A stretch of 64,000 nucleotides of DNA from a virus (IMGVR_UViG_3300029923_000009); one strand, 5' to 3'. Numbered from the stretch's first letter, positions 37,343 through 51,227 are shown. Notes: generated by a model from the sequence alone, not told the origin. A program made the numbers and translations.

Positions 37343-37696
37343 TTAAAATGGGAGATCATCTACTTCCGATGGTGCTTGTGTTGTGGTCTTTTGTGTTGTA
37401 TCAGGCATTTCCTGAGATCCTCCTGTGTTATTAATTTTCCACACATTTAAACTATTATATGTCTTACCATTGTAGTCGTTTGTTTTTGCGTTATATAATA
37501 CTTCAACAATAGCACCTACTGATAAAGTATCTACAATTTCTTGTTTATTTAATGCACTAAAAATAATTGAATTTGGGTGTTCACCCTCTGTTTCTTCTAC
37601 TCTGATAGTTGTATTGGACCATTCCCCATTTTTACCAGTTCCTGATTGTGTAACACCAATTTCTGTAATTTTACCCGAAAAACTTAAATTTGCCAT
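37343..37696 (-). CDS. DUF3127-like OB-fold single-stranded DNA-binding protein
   Basis: FSGKITEIG..QSGTGKNGEW...YNGKTYNSLNVWKI; acidic DDLPF tail. Confidence 0.8.
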   Translation of the reverse strand: MANLSFSGKITEIGVTQSGTGKNGEWSNTTIRVEETEGEHPNSIIFSALNKQEIVDTLSVGAIVEVLYNAKTNDYNGKTYNSLNVWKINNTGGSQEMPDTTQKTTTQAPSEVDDLPF

Positions 37697-37735: not shown

Positions 37736-37885
37736 ATTTTAGAGTTTCTTCCACCATACTCTCACACTATTACCTCCCACATCTGGTGTTACTGATCCTA
37801 ATTTTAGAGTATCTTCCACCAAATCGTTTTCCGACGACCTGTCTTCCAAGGTGTTACTGATCCTAATTTTAGAGTATCTTCCACC
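37736..37885. CRISPR. Cas-less CRISPR-like mini-array: two identical 36-nt repeats plus one 20-nt partial repeat, two 29-nt spacers
   Basis: Repeat GGTGTTACTGATCCTAATTTTAGAGTATCTTCCACC at 37785-37820 and 37850-37885; partial (19/20 match to the repeat 3' end) at 37736-37755; exact 65-nt period. The repeats are certain; CRISPR function is inferred. Confidence 0.55.
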
Positions 37886-38229
37886 CTGTCTTTTATAAAG
37901 GACTGAGTTTCATTATAATTAAGACCGAAGTTACTTCCAAAAACTGACCAAATTTTATCATAATGAACATAGAAATACCTTTTTTCTTTATTTTCTGAAT
38001 CCTGATATAATTCAAAAATAACTTCATCATTTTTATTATCTTTATAAAATACAGAATTAGGATATTCAGGTTTAATAACAATTGATAAATCGATTAAAAA
38101 ACAACGAAAGAAATCCTCCATTTCTTTATTCTTATCTATTTTGATAAAATCAATAATTATTTTATTATCATTATATTTAATTAATTTTTTATATTCATTT
38201 GGAATATTTATTTCTATTAAATTTTTCAT
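37804..38229 (-). CDS. 141-aa hypothetical protein whose C-terminus is encoded by the array
   Basis: Repeat read on minus strand gives VEDTLKLGSVTP in frame; spacer 1 gives WKTGRRKTI; stop lies inside the second repeat. Confidence 0.8.
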   Translation of the reverse strand: MKNLIEINIPNEYKKLIKYNDNKIIIDFIKIDKNKEMEDFFRCFLIDLSIVIKPEYPNSVFYKDNKNDEVIFELYQDSENKEKRYFYVHYDKIWSVFGSNFGLNYNETQSFIKDRVEDTLKLGSVTPWKTGRRKTIWWKIL

Positions 38230-48809: not shown

Positions 48810-51227
48810 TTATTGGTTATTACCATTAATTTCTATTTTAGCGGATGAAATATTTTTCTGTTTGTCGATTCGGACGGTAGTGCTATGCCAATCCTTAATA
48901 GAATCCAGATGGGTGACGTGTAAAATGAATTGATAATCCTTTTCAATTTTCTTATACATTTCTCTCATGTTATCATAGTTCTCACTCGCAACTCCGCCAA
49001 GAATTTCATCTAAAATTAAAAAGTTTGGTCTTGGCATTGTTGATATATTCCCAAGAACACATCTTAAAGCCAGCGCCGATGCTGTTTTTTCGAAACCAGA
49101 CGCACCGCCCAAACTTGATGCCACATCATCTTTAATTATATTAAAAACTACCTCGTTTTTATCTGTTAAAGCAACTTCAATGTCAAAATCACAAACATCT
49201 TCCAAAAGTCTACTTAATTCGGAATTTATAATTGGTAGTGTTTTCTTTAACACCATTTTCGAAATACCATTTTTACCAACCATTTCTAAATAAGCTTTCC
49301 AATCTCTGATTAAAATAGCTTCAGTATTAATTTCTTTAATTAATAACTCATTTGTTTTAATTTTTTTATCTAATTCAACAATATTCCTTTCGAAATTTTC
49401 AATTTCTCTTAATTTGGCATCTCTTTCTATTGTAAGTGATCTAATTTTTGCATTGATGTTTATTAGACTGATATCTATCTGATTATTCTTTTCAATTGCA
49501 CCCTTATTTTCATTAAAATCTTTAATTTTTTGTTCATTTTCTTTGTATTGAGATAATAAATTTTGAATTTGGACTGGTATTATTTCAATTAAACCTATTA
49601 ATTTTGCTTTTTTATCGAAAGTTTTTTTATTATTTTCTAATTCAATAATTTCAGATTTAGTTGTATTTAAATTATTAGCTGATGTTATTCCAGATTTTTT
49701 TAATTCTTCTATTTTTAATTCGTTTTGTGATATTGCACCAGAATTATCCAAACCATCATATTTCCTTTTACATGTTGGGCAAAACTCGCTTTTAGTTAAA
49801 TTTTCGTTTGTTAATTTTAATGTGGTAATTTTATTTTTTATATTACTTATTTCAATTGAAATTTCTTTATCTAAATTAATCTTACCCTTATAAATAATTT
49901 CATCGAATGTAATATCTTTTAATAGTTCAAACTCTGATTTATATCCAGCTAATTCTAATCGTTTAGATGCACCTTCTTGTTTTATTTTTTCAATTCTACC
50001 GTTTACCGTATTAATATCTAATTTTAATATATTTTGATCGATTTGTTTTTTTGAAAGTAATAATGTGTCCTTGGATTGCTGTTCGATTTCTGTTAACTTA
50101 TTTAGCTCAGTAACTCTGGTTTTCGATAAATTAATATTTTCATTATTTGTTTTGATAGAGATATTATTGTTTTCAATTACCGAAGTTAATTCTATTTTAT
50201 CATATAACTTTGATTTTAAACCTTTTTCAAATTCTTTATATTTATCCTTTGCAAATTTATCTTTTTCCTCCAGTGGTGATAATCCTACCCATTTAGATAA
50301 TAATTTACCTGTTTCTGTTTTACCCATTTCAATTAGAGAGAATAGATCAGTAGCAGTTGTCATTACAATCATTCCAAAATCTTTTTCGTTACCGATAGCT
50401 TCTTTTATTATTTTATTGGTTTTTACTGAATACTCACCCTGTTCGTTTGAAATAGAATCCGTTAATTCTTCCTTTTCACCATTTATTATTTGGTAATATT
50501 TAACCTTTTGTGATGCATCTCCCCATTCACCAGTACGTTTTTTTGCTCTTGTAACTACTCGTTCAATTACATAAGTTAACCCGTCTATTTTAATACCACC
50601 ACATACATTAAAGGTTGTAACATCTAAATATTTATTGAAACATTCTGATAACGTGTATGGCTTTTGAGTTTTTCCGAAGTATAAAAATGATACTAAATCC
50701 ATAGCGAAACTAGTTTTTCCGTTTTGATTTCCACTAGTTACTCCGTCTATACTACCATTCAAAAGAATTAAGCCTTTTAAGTCTGTATAATCAAACCTAT
50801 TATCTGGACCGTAACTTAGGAAATTGCTCCATTCAATCCATTCCAATTCAGATTTTCTAAACTTTTCATAAACATCGTAATCAATTTTGGAATTTATCTC
50901 AGAATCAATAACCTTTATATGTTCAAAATCAATATTCTCGATTTTATTATCGATAATGTAATCATTAAATAGTTTTAATTGAAATTTTGGATCTTGAATA
51001 TTATTTATAACCTCGGACGAAACATCTATTTGTTCTCCTTTTTCATTTAATTTGATCGCATTAAAAGAAACTTTTACCGATTCTTTTGGTATTCCATATC
51101 TATCGGCAAATGTCGATATAATATGTTTTTTTGATTCATGAGAATAGTTAATTGGATTGTCGTTCCATTCAACATTGATTTTTGATTTCTTCCCTACTTT
51201 AACTCTATATTTATTATTTACTGACAT
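48810..51227 (-). CDS. gp46/SbcC/Rad50-like SMC ATPase (recombination endonuclease subunit)
   Basis: Walker A GNQNGKTS, long coiled coil with CPTC Zn hook, ASGFEK signature, LILDE Walker B, HVTH. Confidence 0.9.
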   Translation of the reverse strand: MSVNNKYRVKVGKKSKINVEWNDNPINYSHESKKHIISTFADRYGIPKESVKVSFNAIKLNEKGEQIDVSSEVINNIQDPKFQLKLFNDYIIDNKIENIDFEHIKVIDSEINSKIDYDVYEKFRKSELEWIEWSNFLSYGPDNRFDYTDLKGLILLNGSIDGVTSGNQNGKTSFAMDLVSFLYFGKTQKPYTLSECFNKYLDVTTFNVCGGIKIDGLTYVIERVVTRAKKRTGEWGDASQKVKYYQIINGEKEELTDSISNEQGEYSVKTNKIIKEAIGNEKDFGMIVMTTATDLFSLIEMGKTETGKLLSKWVGLSPLEEKDKFAKDKYKEFEKGLKSKLYDKIELTSVIENNNISIKTNNENINLSKTRVTELNKLTEIEQQSKDTLLLSKKQIDQNILKLDINTVNGRIEKIKQEGASKRLELAGYKSEFELLKDITFDEIIYKGKINLDKEISIEISNIKNKITTLKLTNENLTKSEFCPTCKRKYDGLDNSGAISQNELKIEELKKSGITSANNLNTTKSEIIELENNKKTFDKKAKLIGLIEIIPVQIQNLLSQYKENEQKIKDFNENKGAIEKNNQIDISLININAKIRSLTIERDAKLREIENFERNIVELDKKIKTNELLIKEINTEAILIRDWKAYLEMVGKNGISKMVLKKTLPIINSELSRLLEDVCDFDIEVALTDKNEVVFNIIKDDVASSLGGASGFEKTASALALRCVLGNISTMPRPNFLILDEILGGVASENYDNMREMYKKIEKDYQFILHVTHLDSIKDWHSTTVRIDKQKNISSAKIEINGNNQ

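Follow-up and report, generated by a model that had tools for sequence, protein, structure and literature searches.

A gene-embedded, cas-less CRISPR-type mini-array in a large uncultured phage, probably serviced by its host

Huge phages carry compact CRISPR arrays without cas genes, and the spacers of these arrays include some against the host genes for sigma70 and GlyRS (Al-Shayeb et al. 2020, PMC7162821). Solitary repeats of viruses act as RNA anti-CRISPRs (Racr; PMC10651486), and the survey concerned found such repeats for all CRISPR types but none for type VI. Reports of viral crRNA-like RNAs exist as well (bioRxiv 10.1101/2024.10.29.618823). In type VI-B arrays the repeats are 36 nt long, with GUUG and CAAC ends and a poly-U loop, the spacers are 30 nt long, and in the crRNA the spacer precedes the repeat (Smargon et al., bioRxiv 10.1101/092577). 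The VI-B arrays of Flavobacterium columnare gain spacers, including some from the host genome, through the Cas1 of a II-C system acting in trans, and spacers that target the bacterium's own mRNAs are selected against because they induce dormancy (PMC8092290). Extraneous crRNA sequesters Cas13b, depletes the useful crRNAs and lowers phage defence (PMC13187072).

Here, we describe a mini-array found in a stretch of 64,000 nucleotides (the window), which is part of a 147-kb virus record (IMGVR_UViG_3300029923_000009) with a CheckV completeness of 41%. As in huge phages, the array is compact, lies on a large phage and comes without adaptation or interference genes, and one of its spacers matches a transcription gene of a bacterium from the same samples (there sigma70, here rho). 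The huge-phage arrays are, in contrast, ordinary and intergenic with host-like repeats, and neither a dual-coding repeat nor a conserved carrier gene has been described for them. With Racr and the viral crRNA-like RNAs, the locus shares repeats on a virus that lacks cas genes, a complement of zero to two spacers, and a plausible role in occupying or redirecting host Cas proteins. Racr-type units, however, are intergenic, have a promoter of their own and carry a repeat close to that of the host, whereas here a conserved gene terminates in the repeat, spacers are exchanged and the search for a bacterial counterpart of the repeat came up empty.

Cas-less viral mini-arrays and repeat mimics are therefore already known. 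As far as our literature searches show, which turned up no description of arrays inside coding genes, it is new that a repeat doubles as conserved coding sequence, that such a coding repeat still gains and loses spacers, and that the arrangement recurs in more than 1,000 protein clusters.

The array and its carrier gene

The array (Table 1) consists of two identical repeats, with the plus-strand sequence GGTGTTACTGATCCTAATTTTAGAGTATCTTCCACC, and a shorter copy of the 3' part of the plus-strand repeat, all three at an exact period of 65 nt; none of 100 shuffles produced any repeat match. The initial annotation had described this layout, together with two unrelated, GC-rich spacers, and both descriptions hold, with the addition that the short copy carries a mismatch; the phage genome as a whole has 28% GC. 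No further copy of the repeat occurs in the window or the 147-kb record, and the earlier statement that neither spacer has a self-match extends to the whole record. Exact copies of the repeat were also absent from viral, genome and JGI metagenome collections. The locus thus displays at least two near-identical direct repeats in the 23-47 nt range at regular spacing, and unique spacers of uniform length and foreign derivation, the source having been found for spacer 1 only.

The absence of cas genes, noted before for the window, applies to the entire 147-kb record, which is 41% complete: Pfam and PADLOC searches on its large ORFs and Cas1 and Cas2 profile searches over its full length returned none, and no cas13b was found in it. 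A PADLOC match to RT_UG24 (E = 0.0015) was taken as noise.

Table 1. Features of the array and its surroundings in the window
Feature	Position	Strand	Description
Repeat 1 (R1)	37850..37885	-	36 nt; encodes V116-P127 (VEDTLKLGSVTP); adjoins the variable end
Spacer 1	37821..37849		29 nt, 45% GC; exact copy of a bacterial rho segment
Repeat 2	37785..37820		Identical to R1; the shifted frame of the ORF gives WWKIL and a stop
Spacer 2	37756..37784		29 nt, 41% GC; no match found
Terminal repeat, truncated and degenerate	37736..37755		First 20 nt in gene orientation, 1 mismatch
Conserved phage ORF, 141 aa	37804..38229	-	Residues 1-127 form the folded core; the later tail comes from spacer 1 and out-of-frame repeat 2
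Leader-equivalent (putative)	37886..37925	-	3' coding region, conserved (NYNETQSFIK..), adjoining R1 on its upstream side
DUF3127 / SSB-like gene	37343..37696	-	Co-directional, downstream, which places the array in a polycistronic block; same neighbour in relative L029
Lone Bacteroidota -7-type box TAAATTTG	37685..37692	+	44 nt upstream of the array; candidate antisense promoter only

Two points were missed in the initial annotation, namely that R1 is conserved coding sequence and that the 'leader' side of the array is the gene itself. All genes around the array lie on the minus strand, and the array overlaps the 3' end of one of them. This 141-aa ORF runs through R1 as VEDTLKLGSVTP, continues through spacer 1 as WKTGRRKTI and terminates in repeat 2, which is read out of frame, the period of 65 nt not being divisible by 3. 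The VEDTLKLGSVTP motif is near-invariant in 11 homologues that are 49-67% identical to the ORF protein, and after it these homologues diverge completely. Their tails often show [R/W]WKxx, the product of the second repeat in a shifted frame, or else repeat the motif itself in frame, and even within one 90% protein cluster the members share the body and differ in the tail.

A profile search of 1.84 billion representatives gave a family of 1,159 clusters at E<=1e-3 (312 at E<=1e-10). Of the best 150 of the 1,159, 70 representatives have a tail of sufficient length for a verdict, and at least 40 of them show the signature of a second repeat; 24 of these signatures correspond to spacers of 29 nt, 14 to 30 nt and 2 to 31 nt. 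AlphaFold2, run on an alignment of 122 sequences, yielded a pLDDT of 93.8 over residues 1-127, the repeat-encoded part included, and we therefore regard the protein as real. An identical protein is found on contigs of up to 263 kb.

The fold has no clear counterpart among the collections searched: Foldseek against the PDB reached a best E of 0.13, VIA-align a best Z of 4.3 (to homeodomain-looking helices), AFDB returned only the family itself and the ESM Atlas nothing. Pfam and PHROGs have no match for the ORF, nor did tblastn with two family members yield a match in GenBank phages. Related-locus searches with single family proteins were equally empty, while the alignment of the 11 homologues retrieved two loci. 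Long members of the family, of 760, 588 and 346 aa, hold six, five and three tandem copies of the array-bearing domain and are possibly paralogues fused through in-frame arrays. One member (L037:1501-1917, IMGVR_UViG_3300028854_000040) lacks a downstream repeat, and its C-terminus has diverged (EVNNVLKLETTP...), so that array-free versions of the protein occur. The one anti-Cas13b protein known, AcrVIB1, has a mass of 13.6 kDa (bioRxiv 10.1101/2024.11.17.623997) and is thus comparable in size with the core of the ORF (115-127 aa).

Some further genes were noted in passing. The DUF3127 / SSB-like gene may belong to a conserved replication-gene neighbourhood. An 805-aa ORF in the window (48813-51227, minus strand) has no Pfam match and fits the PADLOC model of LmuB, an SMC/SbcC-like ATPase, with E 6.6e-10. 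The gene for a DnaB-like replicative helicase (G000:C1:43368-45887; L005:3368-5884) matches LAGLIDADG and Hint domains, indicating an intein.

R1 is constrained beyond its coding function. At residues that are identical between lineages, identical codons are used in 80% of pairwise comparisons in R1 (129/162) and in 67% in the 36 codons upstream (212/317), these pairwise counts being non-independent. The first base of the repeat, which precedes the Val codon, is G in all seven lineages, although it closes the codons of six different residues (R, E, V, Q, T and M) and G has a frequency of only 10.8% at third positions in the genome. The Val codon itself is GTG in 7/7 lineages, a codon that accounts for just 8.2% of the Val codons of the genome. 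Since this G and GTG are kept against codon bias, the repeat is maintained as nucleic acid and not as protein alone.

Spacer turnover and the origin of spacer 1

The same gene carries arrays of comparable design in related phages (Table 2). The initial annotation had named unchanged spacers in relatives as one mark of a simple tandem duplication; the relatives instead keep the repeat and swap the spacers, which supports the CRISPR-type interpretation that it had put forward.

Table 2. Arrays in the window and its relatives, read in gene orientation (R, repeat; R', truncated repeat; S, spacer with its length in nt)
Source	Layout	Remarks
Window, L008, L009	R-S29-R-S29-R'(20 nt)	Identical in all three
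L012 and nine further contigs	R-S29-R-S30-R	Contigs from other samples
L022/L024	R-S29-R-S29-R'(11 nt)	
L010/L011	R(6-nt deletion)-S27-R-S29-R'(22 nt)	Different gene neighbourhood
L023	R-S30-R	
L025/L042	R-S30-R(1 mismatch)-S30-R'(24 nt)	

The 14 spacers that were read measure 29 nt (n = 8), 30 nt (n = 4), 28 nt (n = 1) or 27 nt (n = 1), and terminal remnants of 11-25 nt recur in the relatives, like that of the window. Repeat copies inside one genome are identical or nearly so. Across relatives the ends of the repeat are conserved (GGTGGAAGA...TAAYACC in gene orientation), and its middle varies mainly at third codon positions or through conservative residue changes.

Close pairs of relatives reveal how the arrays change. 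[quoted passage not shown] L039 and L012 differ at one of 372 positions in the gene and have the same downstream flank, yet L039 has a single repeat and no spacer; the difference between the two amounts to exactly two spacer-plus-repeat units. L040 and L041, with 5 differences in 381 positions of the gene, share a variant terminal repeat and the flank behind it and have one and two spacers, respectively, all different. The inner repeat of L041 is identical to R1, and the terminal repeat that it shares with L040 is the older variant; more generally, repeats degenerate with growing distance from the gene. Spacer-plus-repeat units are thus gained and lost in a polarised fashion, with each new repeat copied from the leader-proximal one. 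Judged from these alignments, the pattern is the one that Cas1-Cas2 integration at a leader-proximal repeat would leave. The gene survives every insertion, with only the tail after Pro127 changing, because its own repeat is duplicated each time. A non-coding AT-rich leader is absent beside the variable end, where the conserved coding sequence of the 141-aa ORF lies instead, and from the polarity of turnover we infer that positions 37886-37925 take the leader's part.

The array of the window is stable in its own population: L008, L009 and the contigs of four peat runs all carry it unchanged. L028 and L029 have the gene and array in common and different upstream genes, and gene and array therefore travel together; they seem to move as a module. 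In a distant relative (L010:7658-11480) they sit between a gene for an SbcC-like ATPase and clpP. A record with the same design (L042, G403; IMGVR_UViG_3300020048_000156) has 59.8 kb and 23% GC, and its CheckV completeness of 8% implies a very large phage.

A search for protospacers located spacer 1 in foreign DNA. When contigs of the four peat runs were aligned to the locus, a foreign contig matched exactly 37820-37849 in 4/4 runs, departing into unlike sequence on both sides, and read depth was raised over this stretch and not over spacer 2. A metagenome search with spacer 1 then gave contig Ga0302215_10005208 (L031, 8.4 kb, 38.6% GC), identical at 29 of 29 positions (1424-1452). The match lies in an ORF (881-2788) that Pfam identifies as transcription termination factor Rho (Rho_RNA_bind 6e-33, Rho_N and ATP-synt_ab), adjoined by an SDR gene and secA, a setting from which we take the contig to be a bacterial chromosome. 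The protospacer encodes LEDRSSENDL, in a variable N-terminal insertion of Rho. In 400 sampled Bacteroidota genomes the full-length matches to this Rho have at most 63% identity, too distant to name the lineage.

Counting the final C of the repeat raises the identity to 30/30 (window 37820-37849 against L031:1424-1453); as it reaches one base into the repeat, the original prespacer may have been 30 nt long, as in VI-B arrays. Read on the plus strand, spacer 1 is complementary to the rho mRNA, and read on the gene strand it has the same sense. The PAM of F. columnare (TTTANNNNN / NNNNNTAAA) does not flank the rho protospacer; the flanking rule of Cas13b (5' not C, 3' NAN/NNA) agrees with the bases there (5' A, 3' GAA), which is weak evidence.

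A source was found for 1 of the 14 family spacers. Their mean GC content is 39%, equal to that of the bacterial contig, compared with 23-30% for their phages. Spacer cores had no matches in IMG/VR beyond the arrays themselves, blastn of the array against INPHARED gave chance-level matches only (E>=2), and the spacers did not match the phages' own records (including G402-G405).

Repeat type and transcribed strand

The initial annotation had called the repeat type VI-B-like. Against the VI-B repeats of F. columnare and F. branchiophilum it shows 24-25 identities in 36 positions (z 4-5, p<=0.0005 against shuffles), and against one Flavobacterium II-C repeat z<=1; the VI-B reference set comprises these two Flavobacterium repeats (PMC5395568), and near-palindromy blurs the strand. 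As in type VI-B arrays, the window has a 36-nt repeat, spacers of 29 nt (29-30 nt in such arrays), four complementary bases at each end of the repeat and a U-rich central loop on the plus strand (AAUUUU), where a U-run antisense to the gene is present in 5/6 of the main lineages compared. Spacers taken also from the host genome, as we propose here, are a further trait of VI-B arrays (PMC8092290). The likeness stops at the repeat termini, in which GUUG/CAAC is replaced by GGUG/CACC in 10/10 repeat variants. This amounts to one compensatory pair change, a G-C pair standing in for U-A, and the pairing of the ends is kept. Other differences from VI-B arrays are that this one resides on a phage, has no cas13b or csx27/28 nearby, and has a leader and first repeat that code for protein.

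The hairpin that the initial annotation had drawn from GGTG/CACC is borne out in the pairing of these ends and not in the fold as a whole, since shuffles fold as well as a single repeat does (z -0.3) and the consensus hairpin is weak (-1.2 kcal/mol). The counterpart in bacterial arrays that it had suggested looking for did not appear: no array with a repeat of this type was found in 185,579 species genomes, using a search pattern that fixed the repeat ends and so misses diverged repeats. The single genome match to the repeat-pair pattern lies inside a bacterial coding gene and was put down to chance. With no bacterial array found and no cas gene, membership in type VI-B is not established, though look and dimensions fit. 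A link of the array to a VI-B-like system of the host seems to us slightly better supported than its absence.

Several features favour transcription of the plus strand. There, 4/6 lineages agree more closely with VI-B repeats; five cells pair as G.U on this strand and stand as A.C on the minus strand, one cell going the opposite way; and the plus strand carries the U-rich loop and would yield two complete spacer-plus-repeat units. The guide from spacer 1 would then be antisense to bacterial rho mRNA, in keeping with the earlier suggestion of plus-strand guides against transcripts, a suggestion that holds in this predicted complementarity. For the gene strand it can be said that the array lies within a polycistronic block, where an extra promoter is unneeded. 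No -33/-7 promoter pair was found by the array on either strand, the plus-strand TAAATTTG box having no -33 partner, and no box matching it was seen, by eye, in the downstream flanks of the relatives read.

Transcription of VI-B arrays starts on the leader side and proceeds into the repeats and spacers (PMC8092290). With the leader placed on the gene side by the polarity of turnover, this rule would give the gene strand, and spacer 1 in the sense of rho. The conflict disappears if the array is read towards its leader, as II-C arrays are (PMC8092290, PMC13187072); in its most VI-B-like orientation the window indeed has its variable end downstream, a topology like that of II-C arrays.

Possible role and competing explanations

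That the array is a genuine one of CRISPR type, built by adaptation machinery, we consider very probable. The opposite reading would make it a tandem duplication, a set of iterons or operator repeats, or a row of swappable C-terminal cassettes. It can draw on the coding nature of the first repeat, on tails that differ among relatives after Pro127 and on a 65-nt phasing that could suit a DNA-binding protein, and yet it is highly improbable: the spacers are unrelated, one of them reproduces 29-30 nt of a bacterial gene without a mismatch and with its borders exactly at the repeats, and whole spacer-plus-repeat units come and go. Cassettes fare poorly too, as the tails often end after 1-8 residues and hence are not conserved. 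Given the rho protospacer and the unit-wise indels, we regard this reading as largely refuted. Simple tandem duplication was rejected on the ground that the repeats are identical but the spacers unrelated, one of them foreign; the same observations, and the lack of any reverse-transcriptase family in the neighbouring genes scanned, led us to discard a diversity-generating retroelement.

Our preferred explanation is that this is a gene-embedded, cas-less CRISPR mini-array serviced by the host, which feeds guides or decoys to a Cas13b-like effector; we think it probable as a whole. The last 36 nt of the conserved coding region would be 12 codons and a Bacteroidota VI-B-style repeat at once, with the coding sequence just upstream of R1 acting as leader. 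An integrase of the Cas1-Cas2 type, most likely that of the host, would insert spacers of 29-30 nt beside R1 and duplicate R1 in doing so, so that the gene would stay intact and the residues after Pro127 alone would change. Spacers would be drawn from the DNA of the infected cell, including the host chromosome, as the piece of rho in spacer 1 suggests. The transcribed repeats may then be bound and processed by a Cas13b-like effector of the host.

Other accounts accept the integrations and differ in what they are for. The gene end may mimic a leader-repeat junction and waste the host's Cas1-Cas2 integrations on the many copies of the phage genome, at the expense of immunity stored in the host's own array, the spacers being functionless by-products. 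A host chromosome as spacer source, the zero to two spacers per array in every lineage seen and the failure to find a promoter dedicated to the array would all suit such a sink, and the nucleotide-level conservation of the repeat ends fits recognition of DNA as well as of RNA. It leaves unexplained, however, why the ends keep a hairpin-like form and the loop is U-rich, both of them traits that VI-B repeats have as RNA; we know of no precedent for a decoy of this kind and hold it to be distinctly unlikely. The arrays might also be neutral scars of ectopic spacer integration ('neo-CRISPR') at a gene end that resembles a repeat by chance, with nothing selected. Short arrays that decay distally, the solitary repeat of L039 and the array-less L037 are what this would produce, but synonymous drift should erase the mimicry, and the GGTG and the synonymous sites of R1 are held against the strong AT codon bias in seven lineages; maintenance of the repeat as nucleic acid thus argues against it, as does recurrence of the layout in at least 40 of the 70 judgeable representatives of a family of about 1,160 clusters, and we find it improbable. 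An autonomous guide system, run independently of host Cas proteins by a phage effector as yet unrecognised and perhaps also by the small protein, would agree with the joint movement of gene and array into different neighbourhoods, with a protein of no known fold and with a record that is only 41% complete. The core of about 115-127 aa is nonetheless far below the size of any known RNA-guided effector, no conserved Cas-like or large nuclease partner stands alongside, and spacer insertion needs an integrase, which the record lacks, so that we rate this as quite improbable.

Within the preferred explanation of a host-serviced array, two uses of the effector can be envisaged. The phage may fill the effector with guides of its own, an RNA decoy that dilutes the anti-phage crRNAs; alternatively, if the plus strand is transcribed, the effector may be directed at the rho mRNA of the host. 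The dormancy that follows self-targeting in F. columnare and the lowering of defence by crRNA of non-invader origin favour a decoy or competitor. The ecrRNA of PMC13187072 is a comparable guide-repeat unit, whose non-invader guide loads Cas13b and weakens defence; unlike the unit proposed here, which would be phage-encoded and selected, it is a host-encoded by-product suppressed by a leader-repeat hairpin. A guide on an abundant host mRNA should moreover trigger collateral dormancy through Cas13, which is not obviously good for the phage. We therefore prefer the decoy, tentatively, and consider targeting of host transcripts, the bolder alternative, unlikely.

The exact match between spacer 1 and rho provides a lead to the host of an uncultured phage that we estimate at roughly 260 kb or more, and with the repeat family as a probe, such phages can readily be sought. 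Should a host Cas13b turn out to be its partner, the array would represent the first counter-measure that acts on type VI systems at the RNA level, would mean that phages can recruit host adaptation to write into their own genomes, and would link phage takeover to Rho. A wider reading, rather doubtful at present, is that of a dual-coding gene family in which the adaptation complex of the hosts writes guides and the phage knocks down transcripts, for example that of rho, or disarms a Cas13b-like nuclease. If true, this family of about 1,160 clusters, mostly from big AT-rich phages, would be a heritable, self-updating device for counter-defence or host takeover, with a small protein that possibly cooperates as an anti-CRISPR.
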